This document shows, one piece after another, positions 20,619 to 61,687 of a stretch of DNA of 64,000 nt. Where the stretch lies: NCBI GenBank assembly GCA_021202845.1, contig JAJQCF010000028.1, forward strand, positions 3,796-67,795, written 5' to 3'. The notes under the pieces were generated by a model. It worked only from the letters and a program-made list of their open reading frames with translations, was not told the origin of the DNA and did no database searches. This DNA is from Oscillospiraceae bacterium. Its GTDB lineage: Bacteria > Bacillota > Clostridia > Oscillospirales > Oscillospiraceae. Within the stretch, counting starts at the first letter, position 1. Each line of letters opens with the position of its first letter. Position numbers and translations under genes: made by a program.

Positions 20619-20657
20619 GCTCTGTGATTACCTCCTCTTTGCCAGCACAAACTAAAA

Positions 20658-20956: not shown

Positions 20957-21004
20957 GTCGTTTCCTCCTCTTTTATATGATTTCGCGCCGCGCGGCGCGG
21001 GTGT

Positions 21005-21217
21005 TCACACCATTATGCGGTTGGCCATCGACTTGTCCAGCGCGATGCGGCTGTCCTTGACCTGAACGATTATATTGCCGCTCAGCTGGGTTACAACCGT
21101 AACGTCCGTGTCCACGACGAAGCCGAGCTCGGCCAAGTGCTGGCGGACGCTGTCGCTACCCGTTATTTTGCGCACGGTGACTGTCTCGCCGGCGTTGACA
21201 AAACTTATAGGCATCAT
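21005..21217 (-). CDS. feoA: FeoA family protein (second copy)
   Basis: ORF 21005..21286. I prefer the ATG at 21217 (MMPISFVNAGETVTVRKITGSDSVRQHLAELGF...), which follows GGGAGG with good spacing. Confidence 0.85.
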   Translation of the reverse strand: MMPISFVNAGETVTVRKITGSDSVRQHLAELGFVVDTDVTVVTQLSGNIIVQVKDSRIALDKSMANRIMV

Positions 21218-21260: not shown

Positions 21261-21280
21261 GGGTTAGCAATTTCTAACCC
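21261..21280. promoter_or_regulatory. Perfect palindrome GGGTTAG-CAATTT-CTAACCC just downstream of the feo promoter -10 (candidate metalloregulator operator)
   Basis: 7-bp perfect inverted arms with a 6-nt spacer, 12 nt downstream of the TATACT -10 box of the feoA-feoA-feoB promoter. Confidence 0.45.
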
Positions 21281-21291
21281 TCGCAAATGTA

Positions 21292-21320
21292 AGTATACGC
21301 TAACTCCGCATACTTGTCAA
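21292..21320 (-). promoter_or_regulatory. Candidate promoter of the feoA-feoA-feoB operon
   Basis: Minus strand reads TTGACA - 17 nt - TATACT. Confidence 0.5.
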
Positions 21321-47165: not shown

Positions 47166-47183
47166 TTAGTTAGAATTGACTAA
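47166..47183. promoter_or_regulatory. TTAGTTAG-AATTGA-CTAA palindromic box (candidate DtxR-like operator)
   Basis: Contains TTAG-N6-CTAA (47170..47183), preceded by a second TTAG. Outer arms are TTAGT/ACTAA. Confidence 0.4.
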
Positions 47184-47301
47184 TAGGGTTTGCAGAAAAT
47201 TGCATTGTGCGACAATGTTGCAGTGATTAAATTATGCAGGGGGTTATTTTGGACATAACGCCGAAAATTTGGTGGGGAGTTAGCGTGGACAAATCTTTTG
47301 C

Positions 47302-47331
47302 TTGACATGATTTGACGCGAGGGTGTATGAT
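47302..47331 (+). promoter_or_regulatory. Candidate promoter TTGACA-18-TATGAT
   Basis: Read directly. Lies in the 600-bp intergenic region ahead of the NEAT-like genes. Confidence 0.4.
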
Positions 47332-47407
47332 TGAGGCGTGACGTAAGGGAGACCTGACGTGCGGTGCGGAAGCAGAGAAATGTTTGTGAAAAATGAATGA
47401 AAATCGT

Positions 47408-47431
47408 ATCCGGCGCGTGACCGGATTTTTC
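47408..47431 (+). terminator. Intrinsic terminator-like hairpin
   Basis: ATCCGG-CGCGTGA-CCGGAT followed by TTTTTC. Confidence 0.5.
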
Positions 47432-47439
47432 AAAGATGC

Positions 47440-47457
47440 TTAGTTAGAATATACTAA
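47440..47457. promoter_or_regulatory. TTAGTTAG-AATATA-CTAA palindromic box (second copy)
   Basis: Near-identical to the box at 47166 and overlaps a possible -10 (TATACT). Lies about 205 nt upstream of the NEAT-like gene start. Confidence 0.4.
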
Positions 47458-47662
47458 CCGCCCTGAAAACGGAGAGGGGTTATGAGAGAAACGGAGCGTC
47501 GGCGGATACGGTGGGCGGCAATGCGGGGCCGGGTTCGCATAAACTAACCTCCCGTGCCGGTCAGCATTTGGTATGCGTTCACGAATAGAACCGAACGGAA
47601 AATCTCCCTCTGTAAAAACCACATTTTGCCGCCGGACAAATCCGGCAGAAAGGAGTCAGAAA

Positions 47663-48118
47663 ATGACTGCAAGACGAAACCTCAAACGGGCAGGAGCCCT
47701 TGTGCTCGCCCTCGCCATGTGCTTCGCACTTGGCGCAACCGCGCTGGCCGACACCGACGTTGGCACTTACAGCGTGACTATCTATCAAGACGGCACGACC
47801 ACAAAATCTATGGCAGATGGCTGCATGGGTGACGCAACCGTTACCCTGTCCGGCACAACCTACACTGTATCCATTCCTCTCACCACCATAACAATGACTT
47901 ACGGTGATTCCACTTACGTCGGAAAAATTACTGATATTGAAATTGAGCAAGCGACAAAATGCAGTGCAGAAGACGATACACTTGTTTTCACTGTATCCAG
48001 CGATGATTTTGCGGAACTCACATTCGATGCCACCATGTCTGTCACTGTTACTGCCATTTCCGGCAGCGGCGGGTATACACATGATAATGTTGCCGCCGAT
48101 ATTGTTTTGAGCAAGTAA
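47663..48118 (+). CDS. Small secreted protein with a single NEAT-like domain (hemophore-like)
   Basis: ATG at 47663 follows AGGAG. It has a signal peptide (MTARRNLKRAGALVLALAMCFALGATALA/DTD) and then about 120 aa: GTYSVTIYQDGTTTKSMADGCMGDATVTLSGTTYTVSIPL...SVTVTAISGSGGYTHDNVAADIVLSK. This follows the NEAT pattern (G.Y.V.f......SMa....a.l.v..g.y.v.l ... Y.h....l). There is no anchor motif. Confidence 0.7.
   Translation: MTARRNLKRAGALVLALAMCFALGATALADTDVGTYSVTIYQDGTTTKSMADGCMGDATVTLSGTTYTVSIPLTTITMTYGDSTYVGKITDIEIEQATKCSAEDDTLVFTVSSDDFAELTFDATMSVTVTAISGSGGYTHDNVAADIVLSK
47750..48115 (+). repeat. Copy 1 of a roughly 366-bp duplicated NEAT-like coding module
   Basis: Long runs of perfect nucleotide identity with 50939..51304, for example a stretch of about 100 nt through CTATCTATCAAGACGGCACGACC...ACTGTATCCATTCC. 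The central third has diverged. Confidence 0.9.
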
Positions 48119-48217
48119 TAACCCCCAACACTGTAGAGGTGCTGTCTCAAAATGGTCTTATAAATCACAAGAGACAGCATCTTCACATTTTCAAATTACA
48201 AACATAAAGGAGTAAAT

Positions 48218-51200
48218 ATGGATATTAAGATATTCAATTTTAGACGCATAACATCCATTTTATTGGTTGCCGTCATGCTTCTTCTTTTCTTGCCGGCGGG
48301 CGTTTTTGCTTCTGATGATGAAGCAAGCGCTGCCGGAGAAAGCGAAACTGCTGCTGTAGAAAGCGCGGAGGCAGAAGCATCAACTGATGCAGACGACGAG
48401 ACTACAGAAACTGCCGAAGCTGCGACAACAGAGACTGCTGAAAACGAAATGAGCACTGATGAAAGCGGCACTGAGGAAAGTTTGACTATCGAAAATTCTC
48501 AAACCGAGGAAACAGAGACATCTGGAGAAAGTGAGGATGCCTCTGCTGCAGAAAATGAAGAAACCTTGATTTCAGTGGCTTCTGCAGAAGCCGAAGAAGA
48601 TACAGGCGCTTATATTGCGGAGGTTTCATATTCTCTCAATGACAGCACCGAAACAGTTAATGTTGCAGACACAGACAGTTTGGTTAATACGCTGGCTGAC
48701 ATTGACACAAGTGCAGCAGATGTTAAGGTAACGTTTTTGAATGACGTTGAATCCGAATGGGCTTCATACGAAATTCCCTGCTCTCTTGAGATAGACCTGA
48801 ACGGAAAAAACGTGTATTTAACCGGGTTATCCAGCGGCACGGCATTTACCATTTCGGCGGATTCTAATTATACCCTGACTGTTTCCGACAGTTCTGAATC
48901 GAATACCGGCGTACTCAAAACAGACGGTGCGGTGTTTAATACGAATGCAGGCACCAAATTGATTATCAATGGCGGAACTTTCATATCAGAAGGTTCTCGT
49001 GTGGTTGTATCTGAAGGCGAGTTGGTTATAAATGGGGGCAATTTTGAGAGTGCAACTGCTAAATCAACAATTCAGTTTCAAGGAACAAGCGCATACATAT
49101 CAAACTGTGATGTTAGAAACCTCTACTCAAGTTCAACCAAAGGGTTTGGAGCTGCTCTTGAGTTATTGAGTTCCGAATATTGTGAAAGTTTTTATTTAAA
49201 AGATTCACAACTAAGTTCCGGCGGCGGAGGTTGTATATACTTCCAGTCACCTCAAGACGAGGTTATATACAATATTGATTCATGCAATGTGGTCGGCGTC
49301 TACGATGCGATTTACGTTAAAAATAATGCAACAGGCGGGACCATTAACCTGCTCGGAGACACAACGCTATACAGCGAAAGCGGCGCGGCGGTGGAATTGA
49401 GAAAATCAGGAACCGGCCTCACGCTCAATTTTTCTGATACTGTTAAGGTGAGTTACAGTGACGCATCAATTCCCGTATTGCCGAGCAGCGCCGTTGCTGC
49501 CTTTCCGGCAGACGAGGACGGAAACCAAATGGTATTTAGTACAGAAGCCGACACCGACGGTTACTACAGCTTTGTAACAACCGCAGGCGTTGTACAATAT
49601 ATGAACGGCTACGAGTATCAAGGTTATCAGTATTTTGGAGACTTTGATGAAACCCTCGCAAGCTCAGAGGAAATTTACAATGCGGGGAATGACGACTCAT
49701 CTTGGGGTTCAGCGCTGTGGAAGGCGTTTAAAACGGCCTATGAAAACGCCTTGGCAGTGAAAGACAACACCAACGCCAACCAGAACGAGATAGACTACTT
49801 CGCAGACGCACTTGCCGCCGCATTGCTTGATTTGAAAGAAAGCAAGGCATCAACAATTAACTTTGACAGTCTGCTCAACGGCGACTACAACGTGAATGTC
49901 TCCATGTGGAACATCGGCTTTACAAATTACTCCATGGCAAATGGCGCGATGAACGAAGACGCGGTTCTGCACATCGGCGACGACGGCGCGTCCGTTACTC
50001 TCACCTTCCACCCGACAACGGCGCTCTTCACCGTCGGCGCGATGACAAACCTTTGGGTATACGAGGGCGAGAGCTTTGAAGCCGGTTACGCCAACCGCGT
50101 TGCGGGAGAAGGGCGCGTTGAGGGCACCTACGGCGACTGGTACACCTATGCCATTGACGACGAGGAAAACCTGACCTACACCACCGAGGCAGCCGAGGAG
50201 GACGCCGACGGCGCGCGCCCCGGCAGCGTCACCATTCCGCTCTATTACCTCGGCACTGACAGTGAGAGCAGAAAAATTTGCGTGCGCATCTCCGTTGACG
50301 TAATGACAGAAATGGGCGTTGGCGACCAAGACGCGATACTCTATCTGGATTACAGCAGCATATCCGCCGTGACGGACACGCTCAGCACCTCGCTCCGCGT
50401 GACGAACAGCGACGGCGAGAGTGCCGAGGACGCAATCACTATTGCCGCAGACAACGAGGGCGACGTGACCCGCACCGTCACGCTGCTGCAGGCGGCGGGC
50501 AGCGGCTATGTCCTTAGCCTCGAAAACAGCAATACGGACGCTGTCTCCGCCGTGCTTGGCGAAGCTGCGACCGAGAGCACAGAGATAGAACAGCTTGACA
50601 TGACCGTGGAGTCCTCGTCCCAGACCCTGACTATCGCAGCGGCGGAGGGACTGGAGGGCACGCAGACCGCAACACTGACGCTGACCGCGACAAACGGCAA
50701 CGACACGCTGACAAAGACCATAGAAGTGACCGTTTCCAGCGAAAAAGCTGTGAAGGTTGAAAGCGTCACCGTCGAAGACGCGACCGCAACCGCGACCCTC
50801 AGCGGCGGCGTTGTGGCGGAAAATGACACCGTGAGCGTCAGCGGCTCCGTCGTCACCGCCGACGCGACTACAGGCAATGCAGACGTCACCGCGGTGAACG
50901 TAATAATTCCGCAGAGCGTGGCCGCCGCGGTGCTGGGCGACACCGCTGTTGACACTTACAGCGTGGCTATCTATCAAGACGGCACGACCACAAAATCTAT
51001 GGCAGATGGCTGCATGGGTGACGCAACCGTTACCCTGTCCGGCACAACCTACACTGTATCCATTCCGCTTACCAGCATCACAATGGATTACGGCGACTCC
51101 ACCTACAGCGGAACGATTTCTGATATTAAGATTAAGCAGGCAAGTGATTGCGATGTGATAAACAATACACTTGTTTTCACTGTATCCAGCGATGATTTTG

Positions 51201-53233
51201 CGGAGCTCACATTCGATGCCACCATGTCTGTCACTGTTACCGCCATTTCCGGCAGCGGCGGGTACACACATAACGATGTTGCCGCCGATATTGTTTTGAG
51301 CAAGGCATCATCAATGCTGGGCGGCTACAGCTCTCTGGTGCTGGCGACCGACGTCGGCAGCGTAACGCTGGACAGCGATATTCTTGCGGGCATAACCGAG
51401 ACCGCAACGCTGACGATTGCCGTCAACAGCACTTACAGCAACTATACCGACGACGACGGCCACGTGTTTGTCTGCGGCTATGACCTGACCCTGAGCACGG
51501 ACTTCAACGGCGGCACGGCGACAGTGAGCGTCCCCTGCGAGAGCACAGATGTTGTTTACGCCTACTGCATAGACGACGACGGCTCCCTTGCCGAGCGCGC
51601 GGCGCTGACCGTAGTCAGCGGCTATGCGAGCTGGAGCACCACCCACTTCTCCACTTGGGCGCTGAGCGAAAAAGAGTACACAATCAGCTCCGGCAGCTCG
51701 TCCGGCGGCTCTTCCGGCGGCTCCTCCAGCAGCACAAGCAGCAGCTTCCTGAACACCGACGGCAACTACCTTGTGACAATCACACTGTACAAGGAGAGCG
51801 CAAACGAGGTTTCCATGGGCGACGTGGCCTTTGAGTACAACCGCAGCGCGCTTGTGACGGTTTCCGGCGGCGAGATAACCTATGTAGAAATTGCCACCAA
51901 CCCCGTCAAGGTTGACCTGTATGTGAGCGCCATGACCGCGCTGGCTCTCACGAACGGCGGAGACGTAGAGGTTCTGGAGCGCGGCGACTTCTCCACAAGC
52001 TACAACGGCACGACCACGAACACATACGAGGACGACAACGGCTACATCAAGCGCGCCAGCTTTGACATGCCCGACGAGGGACAGCCCTCCACGGCGGACT
52101 CCGTGACGTATATCGACGTTACCTTTACCGTTCCCGACACGCCGATGGACGACCTCTATGAAGAGCTTGCCGCGCGTATTCAGTTCGACTGGAGTACCGC
52201 GACAAAGACGAGCAAGAGCCACCTGACCGCTAACACCTCCACCGCGACAGGAAGCAGCAGCAGCGGCGGCGGAACGGCGACCACGGTTGAGGACATTTCG
52301 CTGACCGACAGCGCCACCGGCATCAAACTGGAGACCAACACCAACCGCCTTGACAGCGAGGCGGAGCTGAGAGTTACCGTAGTCACCGAGGGCGACGATT
52401 ACGACAACGCCGCCTCCCTGATGGGTACAGACGACGAGTGGACGCTGTACGAAATTGTCGCGTTGGTTGACGGCACGGTTACAGCTCCCAGCGGCAGCGT
52501 GACGCTGTATATCCCCTGCACCGACGAGGAAGGACTGACCGTCTACCGCATAAACGACAGCGGACGCACCGTCATCAAGGGCTCCGTCAGCGGCAGCTAC
52601 TACACCTTCACCACCAGCTCCCTCGGCCTGTTTGCGATAATCGGCAGCGTGGCCGACGCGGACGAAATTGTTCAGGTCTCCGAGAGCGGCTTCACGGACA
52701 TCGTGGGCCACTGGGCGGAGGAGTACATCGAAACGGTTGTGCAGCGCGGTCTGTTCAACGGCACGGGCGAGACGACATTCGACCCCGACAGCGGCCTGAC
52801 GCGCGGAATGTTCGTGACGGTTCTCGGACGGCTGTACGGCATTGACGCCGAGGCGGAGTTCACCAACGCCTTTGGCGATGTGGACGCCGAGGCATACTAC
52901 GCGCCGTACATAGCTTGGGCGAGCGAAAACGGCATTGTCAACGGCACGGGTGACGACACGTTCGAGCCCGACCGCGAGATAACCAGACAGGAAATGGCGA
53001 CCATAATGAGCCGCTACTTCGAGTTCGCGGAAATCACTCCGCTGGACGGCGAGGCGGTCAGCTACGCCGACGACGCCGACATTGCGGACTGGGCGCGCGA
53101 GGGCGTTGAAAACATGACGAAGGCCGGTTTGTTCTCCGGCACGGACAAGAACGAATTCAACCCGCTCGGCACAGCAACCAGAGCCGAGGCCGCGACGGTG
53201 TTCGCAAGGCTCATAGGCAGCTATGGTCTGTAA
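48218..53233 (+). CDS. Large SLH-anchored surface protein: signal/TM, acidic linker, beta-helix-like region, three NEAT-like domains, two Ig-like modules, three SLH domains
   Basis: 1671-aa ORF. A repetitive NGG/beta-helix-like segment lies at about 48785..49630. NEAT-like segments lie at about 49860..50360 (GDYNVNVSMWNIGFTNYSMANGAMNEDAVLHI), 50939..51304 and 51752..52195 (GNYLVTITLYKESANEVSMGDVAFEYNRSALVTV). Three SLH repeats at 52688..53230 begin FTDIVGHWAEEYI, FGDVDAEAYYAPYI and YADDADIADWAREGV. Confidence 0.85.
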   Translation: MDIKIFNFRRITSILLVAVMLLLFLPAGVFASDDEASAAGESETAAVESAEAEASTDADDETTETAEAATTETAENEMSTDESGTEESLTIENSQTEETETSGESEDASAAENEETLISVASAEAEEDTGAYIAEVSYSLNDSTETVNVADTDSLVNTLADIDTSAADVKVTFLNDVESEWASYEIPCSLEIDLNGKNVYLTGLSSGTAFTISADSNYTLTVSDSSESNTGVLKTDGAVFNTNAGTKLIINGGTFISEGSRVVVSEGELVINGGNFESATAKSTIQFQGTSAYISNCDVRNLYSSSTKGFGAALELLSSEYCESFYLKDSQLSSGGGGCIYFQSPQDEVIYNIDSCNVVGVYDAIYVKNNATGGTINLLGDTTLYSESGAAVELRKSGTGLTLNFSDTVKVSYSDASIPVLPSSAVAAFPADEDGNQMVFSTEADTDGYYSFVTTAGVVQYMNGYEYQGYQYFGDFDETLASSEEIYNAGNDDSSWGSALWKAFKTAYENALAVKDNTNANQNEIDYFADALAAALLDLKESKASTINFDSLLNGDYNVNVSMWNIGFTNYSMANGAMNEDAVLHIGDDGASVTLTFHPTTALFTVGAMTNLWVYEGESFEAGYANRVAGEGRVEGTYGDWYTYAIDDEENLTYTTEAAEEDADGARPGSVTIPLYYLGTDSESRKICVRISVDVMTEMGVGDQDAILYLDYSSISAVTDTLSTSLRVTNSDGESAEDAITIAADNEGDVTRTVTLLQAAGSGYVLSLENSNTDAVSAVLGEAATESTEIEQLDMTVESSSQTLTIAAAEGLEGTQTATLTLTATNGNDTLTKTIEVTVSSEKAVKVESVTVEDATATATLSGGVVAENDTVSVSGSVVTADATTGNADVTAVNVIIPQSVAAAVLGDTAVDTYSVAIYQDGTTTKSMADGCMGDATVTLSGTTYTVSIPLTSITMDYGDSTYSGTISDIKIKQASDCDVINNTLVFTVSSDDFAELTFDATMSVTVTAISGSGGYTHNDVAADIVLSKASSMLGGYSSLVLATDVGSVTLDSDILAGITETATLTIAVNSTYSNYTDDDGHVFVCGYDLTLSTDFNGGTATVSVPCESTDVVYAYCIDDDGSLAERAALTVVSGYASWSTTHFSTWALSEKEYTISSGSSSGGSSGGSSSSTSSSFLNTDGNYLVTITLYKESANEVSMGDVAFEYNRSALVTVSGGEITYVEIATNPVKVDLYVSAMTALALTNGGDVEVLERGDFSTSYNGTTTNTYEDDNGYIKRASFDMPDEGQPSTADSVTYIDVTFTVPDTPMDDLYEELAARIQFDWSTATKTSKSHLTANTSTATGSSSSGGGTATTVEDISLTDSATGIKLETNTNRLDSEAELRVTVVTEGDDYDNAASLMGTDDEWTLYEIVALVDGTVTAPSGSVTLYIPCTDEEGLTVYRINDSGRTVIKGSVSGSYYTFTTSSLGLFAIIGSVADADEIVQVSESGFTDIVGHWAEEYIETVVQRGLFNGTGETTFDPDSGLTRGMFVTVLGRLYGIDAEAEFTNAFGDVDAEAYYAPYIAWASENGIVNGTGDDTFEPDREITRQEMATIMSRYFEFAEITPLDGEAVSYADDADIADWAREGVENMTKAGLFSGTDKNEFNPLGTATRAEAATVFARLIGSYGL
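50939..51304 (+). repeat. Copy 2 of the duplicated NEAT-like coding module (inside the large surface protein gene)
   Basis: See copy 1. The encoded peptides differ mainly in the middle (ITMTYGDSTYVGKITDIEIEQATKCSAEDD versus ITMDYGDSTYSGTISDIKIKQASDCDVINN). Confidence 0.9.
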
Positions 53234-53331
53234 ACATTCGCACCTAAAGCAAAAACAGTAATCCCAAACACCTTGCCGGACGGCGGAGGGGCAAACCTCT
53301 CCGCCGCCTCGGCAGGGCGTAAACCGTTTTC

Positions 53332-53359
53332 AAAGCCGCAGAGACAGCTTTGCGGCTTT
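53332..53359 (+). terminator. Candidate terminator after the large surface protein gene
   Basis: Stem AAAGCCGCA / TGCGGCTTT. A second GC-rich hairpin lies at 53282..53305. Confidence 0.45.
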
Positions 53360-53386
53360 GAAAACAGCTTATGCGGAGGCAGGATA

Positions 53387-54205
53387 ATGAAGGAATTAAC
53401 CGTAAGACAGATGGAGTATCTCCTGCTGTTTGCAACCCACAAATATTCCGAGGCGGGCATGACGAGCGCCGCGGACGAGTTCGGAGTGACAAAGGCGACG
53501 GCCTGCGTCACCGTTGACGCGCTCGAAAGGGCGGGCATGATTACCCGCGGCGAGCTTGGCGAAATCGCGCCCACCGAGGTGGGCGGCGAGATTATAGCGC
53601 CGAGGGTGAAGGCGTTCCATATAGTCAGCGGCTGGATGATGGAGCACATGGGTCTGCTGCCGATAAGAGCGGAGCAGGCCGCAAGGACAATAGTCTGCTC
53701 GCTGGACGACGATATAATCGAAAAATTCCTTAAATATAACAATCAGCCCGCCGCGCCGAAGTCGGAGAGCGAGGATGCCCTTCTCGAAAATCTGCCATAC
53801 GGCGTTTATACGGTGGACTTTGAGGTGAGAAAAAAAGGCAGGACGGAGCTGTCTATGGCAAACGCCGGCTTTCTCAAGCCGGCAATGGCTCTGCGGGAAA
53901 ACGAACGCAGCCTTTTCACGCTCTGCCCTATAAGCATAACGCGGAACATTCGCCTTATGCCCAAACGCTCGGCCATTCTGGAAACGATGTGGTATTACCA
54001 CGGCGACTCGTGGCGCGAGGCGCAGAGCTCTCCCACGGGAGTGACGATTCCCGGGTACGCGATGCGCTTCGACCCCGTTCGCAAGACAGCAACAGTGCGC
54101 GTGCGCATGAGGACGTCCATTTCCCTGCGCTATATGCCGGAGAGCGAGGCGGACATCGTGTTTTTCCTCACCTCATGTGCGGAAGATGAGAAAGTATACT
54201 TATAA
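53387..54205 (+). CDS. DtxR-like winged-helix regulator fused to a C-terminal NEAT-like domain
   Basis: ATG at 53387 follows GGAGG. Residues 1-115 align by eye with the DtxR/MntR N-terminal and dimerisation regions (RQMEYLLLF...AADEFGVTKATACVTVDALERAGMITR...KAFHIVSGWMMEHMGL). Residues from about 135 onward (nt 53789 onward) read GVYTVDFEVRKKGRTELSMANAGFLKPAMALRENERSLFTL...TVRVRMRTSISLRYMPESEADIVFFL, which is NEAT-like. No signal peptide. Confidence 0.75.
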   Translation: MKELTVRQMEYLLLFATHKYSEAGMTSAADEFGVTKATACVTVDALERAGMITRGELGEIAPTEVGGEIIAPRVKAFHIVSGWMMEHMGLLPIRAEQAARTIVCSLDDDIIEKFLKYNNQPAAPKSESEDALLENLPYGVYTVDFEVRKKGRTELSMANAGFLKPAMALRENERSLFTLCPISITRNIRLMPKRSAILETMWYYHGDSWREAQSSPTGVTIPGYAMRFDPVRKTATVRVRMRTSISLRYMPESEADIVFFLTSCAEDEKVYL

Positions 54206-54235
54206 TTACATATACAAATCAGCGAGGTAAAAGAC

Positions 54236-55195
54236 ATGAGAGCAAAAACATTTGTATCCGCGCTGCTGTGCGCCGCGCTGCTGGCGGGCACTGCGGCGGT
54301 AAACGCAATGGCGCTGCAAACGGGAGCCTACACCGGCAGCGTGACAACCAGCTACTATAACCCCGACACGGGAAATGTTGACGACGGCGGTACGTCCAAC
54401 GCCGCGCTGGGCGAGGGAATGTGCCGCTCCGCCACCGCAAAAACGGGGCTTGTGGAAATAGACGGCGACGGAAACGTGTGGGTCACCATTCGCCTGCAGC
54501 TCCAAAGCAGCTGCAGCAACGTGGCGTTCTACACGCGCACGGGCTACGACAGCTATTCCAAGGTCAGCTACACCATTACCGCCGAGGACAGCGGCAATGA
54601 CTCCATAGACTACCGCTTTGCGATTCCCAGCGCCGGCACCTACATAAAGGCCACGATGTATGTGACGCCTATGGGGCGCGACGTGCTGTGGTATCTCTGG
54701 GTAGACACCTCAACGCTTACTTCCGGCAGCGGAGATTTTGTTGTGAGCATAGACCTTTCCGAATCCGCGGCTCCAACCGAAACAGAGGCTCCCGCGGAGA
54801 CTGCCGCGCCCGCCGAAACAGAGACACCGGACGAAACGCCGACGCCCGCCGAGACGCAGATGGCGGCTGAAACCGAGTCTCCGGCGGAAACGGCGCAGCC
54901 CGCCGCGGCCGAGCAGACCGCCGAGCCTGCCGCAGCCGAGTCTCCGCAGGAGACGACGGAGGCCGTAAGCACGGACGAGGACGACGCGGCGGACGTTAGC
55001 TCCGACGTGAGCGCCGCCGCGCCCGTCGAAGCCGACGAAGCCGACGAGGCCGCGAGCTCTGCGGACAGTGCCGACGAAGCGGAAAACGCGGACGAGGAAA
55101 GCCCCGCCGTATCCGGCGCTGTAATCGCTGTCATCGTGGTCATAGCCGCCGCGGCAGCAGTCGGCGCGGTATGCTGTGTGAAAAGGAAGCGGTGA
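54236..55195 (+). CDS. Shp-like heme-binding cell-surface protein with acidic linker and C-terminal TM anchor
   Basis: Signal peptide present. YNPDTGNVDDGGTSNAALGEGMCRS... and ...ATMYVTPMGRDVLWYLWVD match my recollection of Streptococcus pyogenes Shp (YRHPISGQIEDSGG...GQGMVEG and MFVEPMGREVVFYL), including both Met ligand positions. A PAET-rich linker follows, then AVIAVIVVIAAAAAVGAVCCVKRKR. Confidence 0.8.
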   Translation: MRAKTFVSALLCAALLAGTAAVNAMALQTGAYTGSVTTSYYNPDTGNVDDGGTSNAALGEGMCRSATAKTGLVEIDGDGNVWVTIRLQLQSSCSNVAFYTRTGYDSYSKVSYTITAEDSGNDSIDYRFAIPSAGTYIKATMYVTPMGRDVLWYLWVDTSTLTSGSGDFVVSIDLSESAAPTETEAPAETAAPAETETPDETPTPAETQMAAETESPAETAQPAAAEQTAEPAAAESPQETTEAVSTDEDDAADVSSDVSAAAPVEADEADEAASSADSADEAENADEESPAVSGAVIAVIVVIAAAAAVGAVCCVKRKR

Positions 55196-55198
55196 GCT

Positions 55199-56167
55199 AT
55201 GAGAAGGATTATTCTTGTCTGCATTGCCCTGTCCTTGGCTCTGGCGCTCTGCGCCTGCGTTGACCAGCACCCCGAAGAAGATACAGCGGCGGAAAGCACC
55301 GCTGCGGCGGAAAACGCGGCCGCGAATGAAGATGTGGAGGAGCCTGCGCGCATTATAGCGACGTCTTACTCAACCATACTTATATGTGACAAGCTGGGGC
55401 TTGACCTTGTGGCCGTTTGCTCAACCTCCGGCGAGCTGCCGGAGCGCTATCAGGATTTGCCCACCGTCGGCACGGCCATGTCTCCCGATGCGGAAGCCAT
55501 AGCTCTCTTGGAGCCGACGGATGTTATCGGCCCCGACACGCTGGCCGAGACAATAGAGCCTACATATCAGGCAGCGGGGGTGCCCTACACCTTCATAGAT
55601 TTGCAGAGCGTTCAGGGAATGTACGACAGCATTGCCATGCTGGGAGAAAAATACGGCGTGTCGGAGGCCGCCGATACGCTCATTGCCGAATATGAGGAAA
55701 TTTTAGCGGACTTCCAAACAAGCATTGAGGGCGAGGAGCAGCCGACGGTGCTGCTGCTCATGGGTCTGCCCGGAGCTTACATAGAGTGTACGCCCAACTC
55801 CTATGCCGGTTCGCTGCTGGAGCTTGCGGGAGCGGTGAACGTGGTACAGGTTGACGACGAGATGAACTTTGTCTCATGGAACACCGAGGAGCTTTTGGCG
55901 CTTGACCCCGATTACATACTGCTGACGGCTCACGGCCTGCCGGAGCTGGCTATGGAAATGTTCGCCGAGGAGTTTACTACCAACGACATTTGGAAGCATT
56001 TCAGAGCTGTCGAGGACGGGCACGTATATCAGCTTGACTATACGCTCTTCGGCATGAGCTGCACGTTTGACTGGCCGGAGGCGCTTGCAGTTTTGCAGGA
56101 AATACTGTACAGCGAAACATATGAGGCTTACGACGCGGAGGCTGCCTACCTTGAAAACAATTCATAA
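55199..56167 (+). CDS. Heme/siderophore-type ABC substrate-binding lipoprotein (Peripla_BP_2, HtsA/SiaA-like)
   Basis: Lipobox LALCAC. Class III binding-protein pattern (IIATSYST...LDLVAV...LEPTDVIGPD...). Sits directly after the Shp-like gene, as in shp-htsABC. Confidence 0.8.
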   Translation: MRRIILVCIALSLALALCACVDQHPEEDTAAESTAAAENAAANEDVEEPARIIATSYSTILICDKLGLDLVAVCSTSGELPERYQDLPTVGTAMSPDAEAIALLEPTDVIGPDTLAETIEPTYQAAGVPYTFIDLQSVQGMYDSIAMLGEKYGVSEAADTLIAEYEEILADFQTSIEGEEQPTVLLLMGLPGAYIECTPNSYAGSLLELAGAVNVVQVDDEMNFVSWNTEELLALDPDYILLTAHGLPELAMEMFAEEFTTNDIWKHFRAVEDGHVYQLDYTLFGMSCTFDWPEALAVLQEILYSETYEAYDAEAAYLENNS

Positions 56168-57146
56168 GGACATTTTCAAAGGTGTGGTCGGCTGCGCTGT
56201 GCTTGCCGCAATGATTTTTGCACTGACGCTGATTGCCATGAAACTCGGCAGCATCAGCATTACATACGGCGATTTGTTCAATGGCCTGTTCGTAGCCTAT
56301 GATAAACGCGTTGCGGTTATATATGACCTGCGGTTCCCGCGCATTATAGTAGCGCTGCTGGGCGGCGCGGCGCTGAGCTGCTCGGGACTGCTTTTTCAGG
56401 CTGTTCTGCGCAATCCGCTGGCCGACCCCGGCATTATCGGAATATCCGGCGGAGCCTCTCTGGCGGCGTCCGCTGTGACGGCGCTCTTCCCCGCGCTGTA
56501 TTTATCCGTACCGCTCATTGCCTTTTTTGGCGGTCTGGCAGCGTTCGCGGTAATATATTCTTTGTCATGGAAGGGCACGCTTGACCCCGTGAGGATTATC
56601 CTTGTAGGAATTGCCGTTGCCGCAGTGTTCACCGGACTTGGCGAGGTGCTGAACGGCATTGCCGACAGCACAGGAGTGTCGGTCAGCGTCAGCGGGCTTT
56701 CCCAACTCGTGTGGTCCGACGTGCGCATGATGGCGCTGTATTCCGCTGTCGGAATAGTGCTGGCCGCCGCACTGTCTCCCGCCTGTAATCTGCTGGCACT
56801 GGACGACAAAACTGTTCGCGGCCTCGGCGTTCGCGTTGACCGTCTGCGGCTTACCATTTCCGCCGTTGCCGTTCTGCTGGTAAGCGGCGTGACCGCGGTT
56901 ATCGGCGTAGTGGGTTTCCTTGCGCTTATTGTGCCCCATATGGCGCGGCGAATTGTTGGCTCCGACCATAGAGTGCTTGTGCCGTTTTGTGTCCTGCTGG
57001 GCGGCTTCGTCCTGCTTCTTGCCGACACAGCGGGGAGGCTGATTGCTTCCCCCAACGAGATTTCCGCAAGCATTATTATGAGCATAGTAGGCGGCCCATT
57101 CTTTATCTTTCTGCTCAAGCGAGGCGACAGACATGGTAAGCATTGA
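56151..57146 (+). CDS. FecCD-family ABC permease
   Basis: Polytopic ORF with RNPLADPGIIGISGGASL and other motifs typical of FecCD/BtuC. I prefer the TTG at 56151, after GGAGG; the track ORF begins at 56067. Confidence 0.85.
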   Translation: MKTIHKDIFKGVVGCAVLAAMIFALTLIAMKLGSISITYGDLFNGLFVAYDKRVAVIYDLRFPRIIVALLGGAALSCSGLLFQAVLRNPLADPGIIGISGGASLAASAVTALFPALYLSVPLIAFFGGLAAFAVIYSLSWKGTLDPVRIILVGIAVAAVFTGLGEVLNGIADSTGVSVSVSGLSQLVWSDVRMMALYSAVGIVLAAALSPACNLLALDDKTVRGLGVRVDRLRLTISAVAVLLVSGVTAVIGVVGFLALIVPHMARRIVGSDHRVLVPFCVLLGGFVLLLADTAGRLIASPNEISASIIMSIVGGPFFIFLLKRGDRHGKH

Positions 57147-57897
57147 ACATCTCACATTCTCCTATGACGGCCGGCCCGTATTGAATGACCTCTCCATTAA
57201 GATTAAAGACGGCGTAATAACCACCCTTTTGGGGGCAAACGGCTGCGGCAAAACCACGCTCCTGCAGCTGATGACAAAAAACCTCAAGCCGACTTGCGGA
57301 GCGATAAAGCTGGACGGCAGAGAGCTTAAAGACATATCGGTTAAAGAGTTTGCCCGCCGAGCGGCGATTGTTCATCAAAAAAATATAGCTCCCGACGACC
57401 TCAGCGTGGAGCGCCTTGTCAGCTATGGACGTCTGCCGTACAGCTCAATTTTCAGGCCGGGGCTGAACGAGGAAAATCAGGAGCAGGTGGAGCGGGCATT
57501 AAAGCTGACGAATATGGATACGCTGCGCGAGCGGCACGTTGGAACACTCTCCGGAGGACAGCGGCAGCGAGCGTTTATTGCAATGGCTCTGGCGCAAAAT
57601 ACGCGGCTGCTCTTTTTGGATGAACCGACCACGTTTCTCGATGTGCGTTATCAGGTGGAAATACTGCGCTTGGTAAAAACGCTGAACAAAGAGCAGGGCA
57701 TCACGATAGTCATGGTGCTCCACGACATCAATCAAGCGCTGACCTACTCGGATGAGGTGATAGGACTGCACGGCGGGAAGGCCGTTTTGCAGGGTGCTCC
57801 CGAGGATGTAATCAGCACGGAGAGCATACGCACGCTTTACGGCGTAGAGCTCCCGGTTTTTCACAGCGGCGGAAGGCTCTGCGTTATGGCGGTATAG
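57133..57897 (+). CDS. Heme/siderophore ABC transporter ATP-binding protein
   Basis: Walker A GANGCGKTT, signature LSGGQRQR, Walker B LLFLDEPT, H-loop VLHD. Confidence 0.9.
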   Translation: MVSIEHLTFSYDGRPVLNDLSIKIKDGVITTLLGANGCGKTTLLQLMTKNLKPTCGAIKLDGRELKDISVKEFARRAAIVHQKNIAPDDLSVERLVSYGRLPYSSIFRPGLNEENQEQVERALKLTNMDTLRERHVGTLSGGQRQRAFIAMALAQNTRLLFLDEPTTFLDVRYQVEILRLVKTLNKEQGITIVMVLHDINQALTYSDEVIGLHGGKAVLQGAPEDVISTESIRTLYGVELPVFHSGGRLCVMAV

Positions 57898-57900
57898 AAA

Positions 57901-58311
57901 ATGAAAGGTGCGGCTTTAACAATGAAAATATTTTTTATAATGCTCGGGCTTGTATGTCTCGGACTGGGCTGCATAGGCGTTGCGCTGCCGATACTGCCCA
58001 CCACGCCCTTCCTGCTTGCGGCGGCGTTCTGCTTTGCCAAAAGCTCCGAGCGCCTTAGCAACTGGTTCATGGGAACAAGGCTATATAAAAATAATCTTGA
58101 ACCCTTTGTGCGCGGAAATGGCATGACGTGGAGGGCGAAGCTGCGTATTATGGCAACTGTGACCGTTATTATGGTAATTGCTTTTATTGCTATGCGCGGC
58201 ACGACGGTCGGCAGGATATGTCTTGCCGTGGTGTGGGCGGCACATATCATAGCGTTTTGTTTTATTATCAAAACCTGTCCCCGTGAGGGAGAAAGCGGGG
58301 AAGAAAAATGA
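57901..58311 (+). CDS. ybaN: YbaN / DUF454 family inner-membrane protein
   Basis: GCIGVALPILPTTPFLLAAAFCFAKSS.RL..W is the DUF454 signature. The start is either 57901 or the ATG at 57922. Confidence 0.7.
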   Translation: MKGAALTMKIFFIMLGLVCLGLGCIGVALPILPTTPFLLAAAFCFAKSSERLSNWFMGTRLYKNNLEPFVRGNGMTWRAKLRIMATVTVIMVIAFIAMRGTTVGRICLAVVWAAHIIAFCFIIKTCPREGESGEEK

Positions 58312-60056
58312 TGATAAGCAAGCGTTTTTCGGCCATGCTGCCGGATATAAAACGCTTTATTTACGGCAAGGTATTTGTGAACTGGGTCTCGCTGCTGTCC
58401 GGCATATTGCTGTGGTTTGCCGTGGCGGATTTGCTGGAGCAGGCGCTGAACGGTCAGCTCTCAGCGGGCGGCACTGCGAGAGGCGTATGCATCGTCCTTG
58501 TGTGCGCGGCGGTCCGCTTTGTGCTGACGAAAGCCTCTGCGGAGCTGACGCACAGGGCTACTTCCCGCGTTAAGCTAAAGCTGAGGGAGCTGCTGTACGG
58601 AAAGCTCTGCCGTCTCGGCACAGACTATACGGACGCTTTTCCAACAGCGGAGGTCGTGCAGCTCGCGGGAGAGGGCGTGGAACAGCTGGAGAGCTATTAC
58701 GGCAATTTTCTTCCGCAGCTTTACTATGCGGTTCTGGCCCCAGTGACGCTTTTTGCGGTGTTCCTGCCTCTCTCACCGCTGACGGCTATAGTGCTTTTTG
58801 TCTGCGTGCCCCTGATTCCGGCTGCCATAATGTCCGTTGCGAAGGCCGCAAAGCGAATGATGGGAAAGTATTGGGATGCTTATGCCAATTTGGGCGACAG
58901 CTTTCTGGAAAACCTGCAAGGGCTGACAACTCTTAAAATCTATGGCGCTGACGAACGGCGCCACAGGCAAATGAATGAGGAAGCTGAACATTTCAGAAAA
59001 GTTACCATGAAGGTTCTCACCATGCAGCTCAATTCCGTAACAATCATGGATTTCGTAGCCTACGGCGGTACGGCGCTCGGCAGCATTTTATCCGTGTATG
59101 CGTTTATGAACGGACGGGTTTCATTCGGCGGCGCTGCTGCCATGATACTGCTTGCAAGCGAATTTTTCCTCGCCATGCGCGCGCTCGGCAGCTATTTTCA
59201 CGTTGCCATGAACGGAGCGGCGGCGAGCGAGAGAATGCTGCGGCTGCTCGACCTGCCGGAGCGCACAGACGGTGAGGCAGACATAAAGGACGGGGAAATA
59301 TCATTTGAAAATCTCAGCTTTTCTTATGGCAACGACAAAAAAGCCTTGGATTGTGTGAGCTTCATCGTTCCGCAGGGGAGTTTCGCTGCGGTCTGCGGCG
59401 AAAGCGGCTGCGGCAAGAGCACGCTGGCCTCAATTCTCGGCGGTTTGCGTTGCGGCTACAGCGGCAGCGCCTCAGTCGGCGGAACAGAGCTAAGCGCCGC
59501 GAAGTCGCAATGCCTGAGAAAACTGGTAACCGTCGTTTCAACAAACAGCTATATTTTCTCCGGCTCCATAAGGGATACTCTTTTGGAGGGAAAGCCGGAT
59601 GCCAATGACGAAGAGCTGTTGAATGCGCTGAAGCAGGTCAATCTTTTTGATTTTGTGCAGTCTCAGGGCGGGCTGGACATGAGCGTATCGGAGCGCGGCG
59701 CAAGTCTCTCCGGCGGGCAGAGGCAGCGTTTGGCGCTTGCGCGGGCGCTCTTGAGGGACAGTCCGATATATGTTTTCGACGAGGCGACAAGCAATATCGA
59801 CGCCGAAAGTGAGGCGGATATTATGAACGTAATACATTCTCTGCGCGGCAGGCATACGATTGTGCTCATATCCCACCGCCTTGCGAATGTAGTGGAAGCC
59901 GATTTTATAGCATATCTCAGCCGCGGCAAAATAGCGGAAATGGGAACACACTCGGAGCTTATAGGGCAAGGCGGAGAATATGCCGCAATGTATGCCGCAC
60001 AGCGGGAACTTGAACAAATAAGGGAGGGTGAAAAACAGTGCGCAGAAGCGGTTTGA
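58308..60056 (+). CDS. cydD: ABC exporter, fused permease/ATPase, CydD-like
   Basis: 582 aa with six TM helices plus an NBD (GESGCGKST, LSGGQRQR, VFDEATS). The N-terminal region resembles CydD-type thiol exporters, but the subfamily call is tentative. Confidence 0.6.
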   Translation: MMISKRFSAMLPDIKRFIYGKVFVNWVSLLSGILLWFAVADLLEQALNGQLSAGGTARGVCIVLVCAAVRFVLTKASAELTHRATSRVKLKLRELLYGKLCRLGTDYTDAFPTAEVVQLAGEGVEQLESYYGNFLPQLYYAVLAPVTLFAVFLPLSPLTAIVLFVCVPLIPAAIMSVAKAAKRMMGKYWDAYANLGDSFLENLQGLTTLKIYGADERRHRQMNEEAEHFRKVTMKVLTMQLNSVTIMDFVAYGGTALGSILSVYAFMNGRVSFGGAAAMILLASEFFLAMRALGSYFHVAMNGAAASERMLRLLDLPERTDGEADIKDGEISFENLSFSYGNDKKALDCVSFIVPQGSFAAVCGESGCGKSTLASILGGLRCGYSGSASVGGTELSAAKSQCLRKLVTVVSTNSYIFSGSIRDTLLEGKPDANDEELLNALKQVNLFDFVQSQGGLDMSVSERGASLSGGQRQRLALARALLRDSPIYVFDEATSNIDAESEADIMNVIHSLRGRHTIVLISHRLANVVEADFIAYLSRGKIAEMGTHSELIGQGGEYAAMYAAQRELEQIREGEKQCAEAV

Positions 60057-61687
60057 AAATTATGCTCGGTCTGCTTGGCCTTGTTAAGCCTTTGGCGCAT
60101 ATTATGCTGGCCGCTGTAGCAATGGGAACGGTGGGATATTTGTGCGCGATATCCATTACCGTTCTTGCCGTAAATATGCTGCTGACCTCCATGCATATAT
60201 CGCCGTGGCCGCTGTCTCTCAGCGCAGCAGCGGCGCTGATGCTGCTCTGCGCCCTGATGCGCGCCGCTCTGCGCTACGGAGAGCAGACCTGCGGCCACTA
60301 CATAGCGTTCAGACTGCTTGCCGTCATTCGTGACAGAGTTTTTGGCGCACTGCGCCGTCTGGCTCCCGCAAAGTTAGAGGGCAGAGGGCGCGGCGACCTT
60401 ATCTCGCTTATAACGGGAGACATAGAACTGCTGGAAGTTTTCTATGCCCACACGATAGCACCCGTCTGCATCGCGTTTTTGGTGTCTTTAACCGAGGCGA
60501 TTTTGATTAGCACGCTGTCACTGCCGCTCGGCTTGCTGGCAATTATATCGTACATCCTCGTCGGCTGTGTTATTCCCTTGGCCTCGGCACGCGCGGAGAA
60601 ATCCCGCGGAATGTCTGCCAGAAACAAACTCGGCGGGCTAAACTCTTTTTTTCTTGAATCCCTGCGCGGTATCCGCGAAACGCTGCAATATGGGCAGAAT
60701 GAAAAGCGCGCGCGGCGTGTTCAAAAGAAAACAGATGAGCTTAACAAAATTCAGGGCGAAATAAAGCGACACGAGGGAACAACCTCTGCACGTTCCGGAG
60801 CGGCGGTAACGCTCCTGACCCTTGCAATGTTTTTGGCCGGTTTGGCGCTGAGTGTAGATTTTTCGACGCTCGTTTTGACAACAGTGACGCTTTCAGCCTC
60901 ATTCGGACCCGTCCTTGCGCTTTCCAACCTCTCGGCTGCGCTCGGTCAAACGCTGGCCGCGGGAGAAAGAGTGCTGTCGCTGCTGGAGGAAATTCCCGAA
61001 ACCGAGGACATCACAAACGGTGAAACGCCGGAATATACGGGCGCGGAAGTCAAAAATCTCACATTTGCCTATGGCAGCGAGGAAATACTGCATGACCTTT
61101 CCGCGCAATTCCCGGCAGGTCAAATTGTGGCCGTAACAGGAAAAAGCGGCTCCGGCAAGAGTACGCTTTTGAAATTGCTTATGCGTTTTTGGAGCGCCGG
61201 AGACGGACAGGTGAACATCTCAGAAAGAGACATAGGTAAAATAAATACTGCCTGCCTGCGGGCAATGGAAGGCTATATGACACAGGAAAGCGACCTTTTC
61301 CATGACAGCATTGCCGACAACATCGGCATCGGCAAACCGGATGCCACAAGAGCGGAAATAGAAAACGCCGCCAAGAAGGCCTCGCTGCATGATTTCGTTA
61401 TTTCGCTGCCCAAAGGCTATGATACGCCCGTAGGGGAACTGGGCGAAACGCTCTCAGGAGGCGAACGCCAGCGCATAGGGCTCGCGCGCGCATTTCTGCA
61501 CGATGCGCCGCTGATGCTTTTGGACGAGCCGACCAGCAACCTTGACAGTCTGAACGAAGGCGTAATACTCAAGGCATTGCGTGAAAACCGTCAGGCAGGA
61601 CATACAGTGGTGCTGGTATCTCACCGCAAATCCACCCTTGCAATCGCCGACGCCTCTTACGCCGTGGAAAACGGTCGCTTCTGCTGA
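60038..61687 (+). CDS. cydC: ABC exporter, fused permease/ATPase, CydC-like
   Basis: 549 aa with NBD motifs GKSGSGKST, LSGGERQR, LLDEPTS. GTG start follows GGGAGGG and overlaps the upstream gene by 19 nt, as expected for a heterodimer partner. Confidence 0.6.
   Translation: MRRSGLKIMLGLLGLVKPLAHIMLAAVAMGTVGYLCAISITVLAVNMLLTSMHISPWPLSLSAAAALMLLCALMRAALRYGEQTCGHYIAFRLLAVIRDRVFGALRRLAPAKLEGRGRGDLISLITGDIELLEVFYAHTIAPVCIAFLVSLTEAILISTLSLPLGLLAIISYILVGCVIPLASARAEKSRGMSARNKLGGLNSFFLESLRGIRETLQYGQNEKRARRVQKKTDELNKIQGEIKRHEGTTSARSGAAVTLLTLAMFLAGLALSVDFSTLVLTTVTLSASFGPVLALSNLSAALGQTLAAGERVLSLLEEIPETEDITNGETPEYTGAEVKNLTFAYGSEEILHDLSAQFPAGQIVAVTGKSGSGKSTLLKLLMRFWSAGDGQVNISERDIGKINTACLRAMEGYMTQESDLFHDSIADNIGIGKPDATRAEIENAAKKASLHDFVISLPKGYDTPVGELGETLSGGERQRIGLARAFLHDAPLMLLDEPTSNLDSLNEGVILKALRENRQAGHTVVLVSHRKSTLAIADASYAVENGRFC

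Follow-up and report, generated by a model that had tools for sequence, protein, structure and literature searches.

A conserved 16-bp palindrome as the very probable operator of heme and iron uptake genes in an Oscillospiraceae bacterium and related Clostridia

The DNA considered here, which we call the window throughout, is a 64-kb stretch of the genome of an Oscillospiraceae-type member of the Clostridia, and all motif counts given for the window refer to these 64 kb. It contains a predicted heme-uptake operon preceded by a leader of about 600 bp, and in this leader lie two short boxes that are very probably real operators. They are copies of a palindrome of 16 bp, kept in related loci, by which genes for the uptake of heme and iron would be switched off. 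The palindrome recurs at the feoA-feoA-feoB operon of the window and in the leaders of related loci, and is very probably read by some repressor of the DtxR fold. With less assurance, we think it probable that the boxes, sized for one DtxR-fold dimer, unite a NEAT/Shp/ABC (ATP-binding cassette) heme operon and feoA-feoA-feoB in one regulon, and that a DtxR-NEAT fusion protein encoded by the open reading frame (ORF) at 53387-54205, within the heme operon itself, is a binder.

The boxes in the window

The initial annotation had described a pair of nearly identical 18-bp palindromic boxes upstream of the NEAT-like genes. Direct reading of positions 46700-48100 shows both 18-mers, TTAGTTAGAATTGACTAA at 47166-47183 and TTAGTTAGAATATACTAA at 47440-47457, which are identical at 16 of 18 positions and begin 274 bp apart, just as had been described. 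The palindrome itself is a 16-bp core and not the 18-mer, and it is imperfect in box 1 (CTAAT); the additional 5′ TTAG present in both 18-mers has no symmetric partner and is not conserved at other loci. Nor are the boxes strictly a pair, since a weaker third box at 47533-47548 makes them a cluster of three. All lie within the leader, which at 606 bp (47057-47662) is of the length that had been estimated.

Pattern searches of the window give a consistent picture. The word TTAGTTAGAA-N3-ACTAA matches at 47166 and 47440 and nowhere else, and TTAGTTAGAANNNACTAA with up to two mismatches likewise recovers only 47166-47183 and 47440-47457, with 0.01 matches expected from shuffles. The core TTAG-N6-CTAA (TTAGNNNNNNCTAA) has four matches, at 20658, 21264, 47170 and 47444; these are exactly the four sites that had been picked out by eye, so that list was complete, and the two that had been placed in the feo operon are both real and promoter-proximal. 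Shuffled sequences have a mean of 0.31 core matches and none of 100 reaches four. All four sites adjoin heme or iron genes, and the six-nucleotide spacing alone occurs, there being no match in the window with four, five, seven or eight nucleotides between TTAG and CTAA. The longer form GTTAG-N6-CTAAY fits all four core sites, and when GTTAG-N6-CTAAC is sought with at most one mismatch there are six sites in the window (1.22 expected from composition-preserving block shuffles), three of them in the heme leader (47169, 47443 and 47533) and three in feo control regions (21263, 21289 and 20657); two sites are perfect, with 0.03 expected. What recurs is a palindrome of 16 bp, R-GTTAG-N6-CTAAC-Y, centred on A/T. 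The boxes of the heme leader are as follows, none being assigned to a strand.

47443..47458, box 2, primary operator candidate, GTTAGAATATACTAAC; perfect arms, with the extra TTAG at 47440-47443
47169..47184, box 1, auxiliary operator candidate, GTTAGAATTGACTAAT; one mismatch (CTAAT), with the extra TTAG at 47166-47169
47533..47548, box 3, weak site, GTTCGCATAAACTAAC; a single mismatch, following box 2 by 90 bp

The counterpart of box 2 is a perfect box in all of the orthologous leaders. Secondary one-mismatch boxes are also found downstream of the main box at three of the related loci described below (L001, L004 and L011), and L028 has a one-mismatch box comparable to box 1, about 65 nt ahead of its strong promoter. 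We also note a 34-codon ORF (MEDKQIALKPSADPFYSTDISTSGVGEIGGVGVS) at 47069-47173 of the window, directly 3′ of a penicillin-binding protein gene and with a GGAGG ribosome-binding site, whose TAG stop codon falls inside box 1.

Conservation across related loci

Related loci were gathered through homologues of ORF 53387, and all prove to be heme loci with the same genes; their named hosts are Flintibacter, Flavonifractor, Candidatus Pseudobutyricicoccus and Intestinimonas, all Oscillospiraceae-type Clostridia. At least one box with no more than one mismatch is present in 13 of the 13 loci where it was possible to read either the leader of the operon or the DNA ahead of the regulator gene (the window, L001, L004, L005, L008, L009, L011, L020, L023, L025, L028, L030 and L032), even though these range from 35 to 60 % GC and encode regulators only 23-41 % identical to that of the window. 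The loci without a box are uninformative, being cut inside the surface-protein gene, disrupted by an insertion (L016) or left with 92 nt of upstream DNA (L006). At the far end of the range, the 13.4 kb of L030 (35 % GC, regulator sharing 23 % identity with that of the window) contain six perfect boxes and two more with one mismatch, and in L032 the regulator gene is flanked by a box on each side.

Across 28 sites the consensus is R-GTTAG-(C/h)-n-W-W-n-(G/d)-CTAAC-Y. There is little or no variation in the arms, GTTAG and CTAAC, and at the centre both positions hold A or T in 27-28 of the 28. An exhaustive count of palindromes (half-sites of 4-5 nt, spacers of 0-12) in seven leaders leaves TTAG-N6-CTAA and its sub-words as the only ones common to all, and gives no second shared operator that might serve a second regulator. 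Two further candidate motifs were also set aside: GTTANCCWWGGNTAAC, noticed in L001, L004 and L028, forms a continuum with the main box, in whose spacer C is favoured at position 6 and G at position 11, and the 12-mer AAGACGGGCAGT is absent from the intergenic regions of all loci except L030 and L032, each of which has two exact intergenic copies (at 3872 and 4998, and at 3882 and 4865, respectively).

The positions of the boxes are also regular. In what we call class I the box follows the -10 element by 3-13 nt, as at the feo promoter of the window, L011 722, L020 19193, L020 19403, L025 3662 and L028 360, the interval being 3-4 nt at L011 722 and the two L020 sites; boxes so placed would act by classical occlusion of a promoter or transcription start. 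A box stands directly upstream of the regulator gene in five loci (L005, L008, L020, L030 and L032), which is consistent with autoregulation. Other genes with boxes are a second, adjacent DtxR-type gene (L011), a regulator paralogue and a pair encoding a glyoxalase-like protein and DUF6796 (L020), an FMN_bind protein gene (L030), and small genes of unknown function (L025, L028). The reading of the boxes as operators, already advanced in the initial annotation, is strengthened by the presence of a box in every readable orthologous leader, by its being the sole shared palindrome, and by its location on or just after predicted -10 elements or at predicted starts.

One of these sites has an unusual setting. 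The box at L020 19193 occupies the centre of a 46-bp near-perfect palindrome (19176-19221; GGTCGTAGTATAATG tg GTTAGCTATCTCTAAC tg CATTATACTACGACC) between the glyoxalase-like gene and the DUF6796 membrane-protein gene, with divergent -10 elements around the box.

The heme operon and its leader

The genes and leader elements of the heme locus, all on the + strand, are listed here.

45239-47056, penicillin-binding protein
47057-47662, leader of the heme locus, 606 bp
47302..47331, P1, strong sigma-70-type promoter TTGACA-18-TATGAT, matching at 11 of 12 positions (promoter scan), downstream of box 1 and upstream of box 2
47408..47430, terminator-like hairpin ATCCGG-cgcgtga-CCGGAT with TTTTT after it, the T-run ending 12 nt ahead of box 2
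47427..47455, P2, promoter-like TTTTCA-17-TATACT (promoter scan), with its -10 inside box 2
47663..61687, predicted regulated heme-uptake operon, its gene order kept in related loci
47663-48118, small NEAT-like protein
48218-53233, 1671-aa NEAT/SLH surface protein
53387-54205, candidate cognate regulator of 272 aa, with no Pfam match above threshold; residues 1-120 resemble a DtxR-type winged helix-turn-helix and dimerisation region, and residues ~135-266 a NEAT fold
54236-55195, Shp
55199-57897, heme-type ABC importer (binding protein, FecCD permease, ATPase)
57901-58311, DUF454
58308-61687, two ABC exporters

In L001 (14605-15852), and also in L002 and L003, an IS110-family transposase gene lies inside the heme operon between the importer ATPase gene and DUF454.

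The box-containing leader is richer in A and T than the genome, which has 60 % GC. Box 1 lies about 120 bp upstream of P1, and box 2 overlaps the -10 TATACT (47450-47455) of the promoter-like P2. The arrangement of a strong promoter followed by a box is general, a strong promoter lying 44-165 nt upstream in the 11 leader boxes examined. Between the two there is commonly a T-run: for 14 of 16 leader boxes, one of at least 4 nt stops 6-14 nt short of the box, compared with 1 of 16 on the mirror side and a background of 10 %. A perfect-stem hairpin plus T tract precedes 8 of the 16 (background 4.9 %), and in seven of these eight leaders the stem ends 17-21 nt before the box. Besides the window, the leaders with a terminator-like hairpin and T-run ahead of the operator are those of L001, L008, L011, L020, L023 and L028. 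The leader RNA starting from P1 (47339-47432) is not unusually stable overall (z = -1.0), and comparison of the leaders by eye reveals no obvious sequence similarity. Rfam gives nothing at the gathering threshold for the whole window, and only noise at E-values up to 10 for the leaders of the window, L001 and L004.

A universal P2, in which TAACNN of the box would be the -10 element, is not tenable, since by eye an acceptable -10 and spacer are found in only about 4 of 11 leaders; the last -10 position is T in 9 of 28 boxes. A promoter of the P2 type, with the T-run plus GA as its -35 element, is convincing in the window, L001, L005 and L008 and poor elsewhere.

Between the box and the first gene there is a 5′ untranslated region (5′UTR) of roughly 200 nt that is GC-rich and structured (window 47459-47662; L001 2081-2304; L004 540-800; L023 1062-1160). 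Those of L001, L004 and L023 have hairpins in common that show compensatory changes (CTTCCCG..CGGGAGG versus CTTTCTG..CAGAAAG), together with a shared linker, GTTNAGAYACCA, while the leaders of the window, L011, L025 and L028 end with a hairpin abutting the ribosome-binding site CAGAAAGGA(G). No Rfam family matches these structured 5′UTRs.

The feo operon as a probable second target

The other sites of the window are at the ferrous-iron uptake operon, which is transcribed leftwards.

18138..21217, - strand, feoA1-feoA2-feoB operon (Pfam FeoA, FeoA, FeoB_N/Gate/FeoB_C)
21292..21320, - strand, feo promoter TTGACA-17-TATACT, read directly from the sequence
21289..21304, - strand, near-box GTTAGCGTATACTTAC with one mismatch, overlapping the -10 TATACT
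21263..21278, - strand, perfect operator candidate GTTAGAAATTGCTAAC (also written GGTTAGAAATTGCTAACC), its start 13 nt downstream of the -10 in the feoA1 promoter
20657..20672, - strand, box GTTAGCAAAAACTAAT inside the operon, between feoA2 and feoB

The register of TATACT within the near-box is the same as that of the P2 TATACT within box 2. In the gap between feoA2 and feoB (20673-20720, - strand) the box at 20657 comes after a hairpin rich in GC (ccgcg..cgcgg) and a tract rich in T, an order of elements that resembles that of the heme leader. A search for Fur-like sites (the GATAATGATAATCATTATC 19-mer with at most six mismatches, or the 7-1-7 form with at most three) finds none in the leader of the heme operon or at the promoter of feo. 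One Fur-like word, at 28105, was rejected, as it merely overlaps the start codon of the ORF at 24833-28123; after this ORF, at 28001-30000, the GC content falls to 0.48-0.51 compared with about 0.60.

Chance similarity and an RNA element as explanations

Given that an AT-rich leader yields more TTAG and CTAA words, the boxes could in principle be chance similarities, or copies of a short dispersed repeat without a regulatory role. The counts argue strongly otherwise: shuffles preserving dinucleotide or local composition expect 0.01-1.2 sites where the window has 2-6, and related loci totalling about 0.3 Mb contain 24 perfect boxes where a word of 10 specified bases would be expected roughly 0.3 times. 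The distance of the boxes from promoters is also fixed. We regard this explanation as extremely improbable. Somewhat more credit is due to the idea that the palindrome acts in RNA, with GUUAG-N6-CUAAC forming a stem-loop for processing, attenuation or protein binding, since most leader boxes are inside the P1 transcript, directly after the hairpin and U-run, and the feo boxes at 21263 and 20657 are also within the predicted transcript. The stem would have only 5 bp, however, and has no match to an Rfam family; several boxes straddle or precede transcription starts (L011 722 and L020 19193, for example), and one at the centre of a divergent promoter serves both strands. Moreover, the arms do not vary in sequence over 28 sites from distant taxa and show no compensatory changes, and because they never co-vary a DNA site read by a protein is favoured. 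An RNA element is accordingly a highly improbable explanation.

A candidate regulator within the heme operon

The initial annotation stated that the locus encodes a DtxR-like regulator, and for ORF 53387-54205 this holds at the level of remote homology and fold, but not at that of family models: no DtxR model of Pfam reaches threshold with the window protein, and the NCBIfam MntR model scores 19 bits against a cut-off of 153. When a profile of the family is compared with solved structures, residues 1-119 match SSO2273 (5.5e-7) and E. coli MntR (3e-6), as well as IdeR, DtxR, ScaR and SloR (1e-4 to 7e-4), and residues ~132-190 match the fifth NEAT domain of IsdX2 (IsdX2-N5; 4.5e-5) and also IsdX1 (~5e-5), Hbp2 and Shr. 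An AlphaFold model compared with the PDB by Foldseek suggests the same division, the predicted N-terminal half resembling SloR, IdeR and DtxR (~1e-4) and the C-terminal half Hbp2-N2 (E 4.1e-6), IsdX2-N5 (5.1e-6, target-normalised TM-score 0.69), IsdX1, IsdA and IsdC. Elsewhere in the family the NEAT assignment comes closer to or reaches the Pfam model PF05031, with 31.3 bits for the L020 paralogue and a precomputed match carried by P0009.

In the segment corresponding to the DtxR metal ligands, where DtxR has HDEACRWEHVMS (HDEACRWEH), the window protein has AEQAARTIVCSL and the family consensus is AEQEARRMVV; equivalents of H79, E83, H98, C102, E105 and H106 are absent from the aligned segment of the window regulator. 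The SH3-like/FeoA C-terminal domain is also absent, and the NEAT fold stands in its place. Within the latter, S156, M157, M250 and P251 are at least 90 % conserved among 50 diverse family members, and M157 in the lip and M250 before beta-8 parallel in position Met66 and Met153 of Shp (alignment to 2q7a), which lie in GQGM and EPMGRE, although BLASTP finds no significant similarity between the C-terminal domain and the window's own Shp (E 11). Neither the sequence nor the model reveals a signal peptide or anchor, the N-terminus being the DNA-binding domain, and we infer that the protein would be a cytoplasmic heme sensor. Because the metal ligands are absent and a NEAT domain is present, heme rather than Fe2+ is the likely signal.

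A word-indexed search gave nine clusters of this family, and an exhaustive profile search 262 matches below 1e-10, with more than 100 full-length (~270 aa) representatives at 50 % identity. Most members have no significant Pfam assignment, and those found so far are inside heme-uptake loci, the named hosts being gut Clostridia. The NCBI labels for WP_058117860.1 of Intestinimonas butyriciproducens are ‘metal-dependent transcriptional regulator’ or ‘hypothetical protein’, and we found no description of a NEAT-containing transcription factor in the literature searched, coverage of which was incomplete. NEAT-less forms of 127-136 aa occur at the same place before shp (L025 12732-13142; L026 14177-14587; L027 14016-14399) and short forms are also seen among the family representatives; L025 is without shp and the importer genes.

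Which protein binds the boxes

The NEAT fusion is not the only protein to be considered, as a second DtxR-family gene adjoins the locus in L001, L004, L009, L011, L023, L025 and L028. Coordinates for five of these adjacent DtxR-type genes are as follows.

L001, 1029-1799
L011, 938-1825
L009, 10983-11888
L025, 4247-5194
L028, 4890-5813

The products form a subfamily with a long helical C-terminal extension. An explanation that we take seriously, while holding it to be rather doubtful, is that a metal-sensing DtxR protein, either the adjacent one or a global one encoded outside the window, is the sole binder and responds to Fe2+ or Mn2+, with the NEAT fusion binding elsewhere, sharing the site or modulating the first regulator. 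These are bona fide DtxR genes, Fe_dep_repress and Fe_dep_repr_C both scoring above the Pfam threshold in L011 and L009, and their products keep the metal ligands (EACHMEHG or EACYMEHG, with equivalents of H79, C102, E105 and H106) in all five loci with a metal-binding region that was read. The adjacent DtxR gene of L011 has a perfect box over its own transcription start, feo operons are typically iron-controlled, and IdeR and DtxR read TTAG/CTAA sites (PMC8464063) while MtsR controls shr/shp/sia (PMC6698748). Nonetheless, there is no metal-type DtxR gene in the 64 kb of the window, in the 20 kb of L020 with its five boxes or in the 13 kb of L030 with its eight, in all three of which the NEAT fusion is the sole DtxR-fold gene. 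For the window, phmmer searches of all six-frame ORFs for canonical DtxR, MntR and Fur homologues gave no match at E-values up to 10, and the adjacent-type proteins of L001, L009 and L011 used as queries found none either. The adjacent subfamily is rare (five clusters) and found only beside the heme locus, which argues that it is not a global regulator. Boxes co-occur without exception with the gene for the NEAT fusion, or for its short form (L025-L027), one or the other being present at every boxed locus, and this is not true of the adjacent gene.

There are, however, several points that weigh against the NEAT fusion as the binder and heme as its signal. In the genomes having it, the adjacent DtxR protein is an equally plausible binder, and since the sequence examined covers 64 kb of the genome, a global regulator of the DtxR/IdeR type could lie elsewhere. 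For feo, repression by iron would be more expected than repression by heme. The recognition helix of the NEAT fusion varies (TKATACV, SKPTAFN, KKSSASI) while the box is constant; that of the adjacent protein varies as much, and because the Q43A and P39G variants of IdeR still recognise their site (PMC8464063) such variability does not discriminate between the candidates. The structural model of the regulator is shallow, with nine sequences in the alignment (predicted local distance difference test, pLDDT, 80.8; predicted TM-score, pTM, 0.49), the window protein scores 19.3 bits with PF05031 against a threshold of 32.8, and its NEAT domain is without the YxxxY motif, so that heme binding is putative. 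As there is only one conserved palindrome, the NEAT fusion and the adjacent DtxR protein may share the site. Taking these observations together we favour the product of 53387-54205 as a binder, a preference held with moderate confidence.

A proposed mode of action

If the NEAT fusion is the binder, heme on its NEAT domain, probably held by Met157 and Met250, would activate DNA binding, making heme a co-repressor. We suggest this polarity because the regulon consists of uptake genes plus feo and because DtxR proteins work in this manner; the opposite polarity is the alternative. A dimer on box 2 would cover the -10 of P2, and dimers on the feo boxes would sit at or just after the -10 there, such that an ample supply of heme would lead, through occupied boxes, to a halt in the uptake of heme and ferrous iron. 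Boxes 1 and 3 may be weaker auxiliary sites, with cooperative binding, looping or blocking of read-through from the upstream operon as possible roles.

The leaders can be read in two ways. In one, there is a second, weak promoter, with the T-run plus GA as its -35 element and its -10 inside the box. In the other, P1 is the promoter of the operon, and the bound repressor would stall polymerase with its active site in the U-tract, promoting termination; this depends on the stall distance at a roadblock, which is reportedly about 14 nt in experiments with EcoRI-Q111. A repressor 17-21 nt past the hairpin could in this way turn a leaky terminator into an efficient one. In the window, transcripts from P1 would meet the hairpin and T-run 12 nt before box 2 and be blocked or terminated by the bound repressor, and occlusion of P2 and the block of P1 read-through may operate together. 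We propose, as a tentative suggestion, that the proteins constitute an undescribed class of heme-sensing DtxR-NEAT factors, probably with Met/Met ligation, acting with roadblock-assisted intrinsic termination in the leaders. The motif with its enrichment, conservation and placement at promoters, and the homology and fold of the regulator, come from the sequence analysis; the identity of the binder, heme as its ligand and co-repressor, and the fate of P1 transcripts are the parts of this scheme that we infer.

Heme and iron acquisition are poorly understood in gut Clostridia such as Intestinimonas, Flavonifractor and Flintibacter, and the 16-bp box provides a concrete cis-element that can be scanned for genome-wide, together with a defined regulon of the NEAT/Shp/ABC heme importer, the linked ABC exporters, feoAB and a few genes of unknown function in related loci. 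Should the proposal be correct, this would be the first NEAT domain to serve as the intracellular ligand-sensing module of a transcription factor, would illustrate the re-tooling of the DtxR scaffold from metal to heme sensing, and could give synthetic biology a switch that responds to heme. If the fixed arrangement of terminator and operator is functional, a DNA-bound repressor would be coupled to intrinsic termination in a new way.

Comparison with known systems

The operator itself is a variant of a single-dimer DtxR-type site, while neither the DtxR-NEAT family nor the terminator-operator module was found described; for natural coupling of terminator and operator in particular, the literature searched, of incomplete coverage, yielded no description. 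In the 19-bp IdeR box, TTAGGTTAGSCTAACCTAA, one dimer binds repeats 1 and 3, the second dimer repeats 2 and 4, with a subunit on each CCTAA repeat (PMC8464063), and it follows that each IdeR dimer reads TTAG-N6-CTAA. A site with the repeats of one dimer alone is bound by IdeR with a dissociation constant of about 78 nM (PMC8464063). The likeness to DtxR/IdeR iron boxes that had been remarked upon in the initial annotation therefore extends to the half-sites and to the spacing for one dimer, but not to the four-repeat 19-bp box as a whole. Both kinds of site are located at promoters of iron or heme uptake genes, and the repression by promoter occlusion that is characteristic of the iron box is also proposed for the window boxes, but the latter are 16-bp sites for a single dimer. 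No site in the window is within five mismatches of the full 19-bp box TTAGGTTAGCCTAACCTAA, the one match close to a box having six (at 47529). In boxes 1 and 2 the additional TTAG is displaced by 4 bp and not by 5, besides being without a partner. L004 alone approaches the 19-mer, with TTAGCTTAGGCTAACCAAC (16 of 19). The conserved flanking base is outside the tetramer here (GTTAG/CTAAC) and inside it in IdeR (TTAGG/CCTAA), and whereas the IdeR/DtxR box belongs to the Actinobacteria, the host here is one of the Clostridia and the candidate binder has no metal site.

A second comparison is with MtsR, the DtxR-family repressor of shr/shp/sia in Streptococcus pyogenes, which binds as one dimer to a 22-bp motif with a TTAA-N6-TTAA core (PMC6698748). 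The two systems have in common the control of an Shp and heme-ABC operon by a DtxR-family protein, a tetramer-N6-tetramer site and several sites per promoter. They differ in that MtsR uses TTAA half-sites, senses Mn or Fe through two metal sites and has a C-terminal domain of the FeoA/SH3 type; furthermore, its gene lies outside the heme operon and it is without a NEAT domain.

The C-terminal 130 residues of the regulator share their predicted fold with the NEAT proteins IsdX1/X2, IsdA/C, Hbp2 and Shr, and the S-M of the lip motif is as in IsdX2-N5; the likeness to Shp is in having one Met in the lip and one just before beta-8. To our knowledge every NEAT or Shp protein described is a heme carrier that is either secreted or anchored to the wall. 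The regulator differs from these carriers in having no signal peptide, in its fusion to a DNA-binding domain and in the absence of YxxxY.

Heme-responsive regulators of Gram-positive bacteria include HrtR and FhtR (TetR family), PefR and HsmR (MarR family), HatRT and HssRS, which are cytoplasmic or membrane sensors that couple the level of heme to transcription of heme-transport genes. Most de-repress efflux or detoxification genes upon binding heme, and their folds and operators differ from those of the window; we know of none among these six that uses a NEAT domain or a DtxR core.

Finally, the leaders resemble those of the roadblock repressors LacI, CcpA, CodY and PurR in that the operator is well downstream of a strong promoter, here 44-165 nt after the -10 element. 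In roadblock systems the occupied operator can physically stop an elongating polymerase, and in the leaders described here it would do so at a point that is, in addition, 17-21 nt past a terminator-like hairpin.

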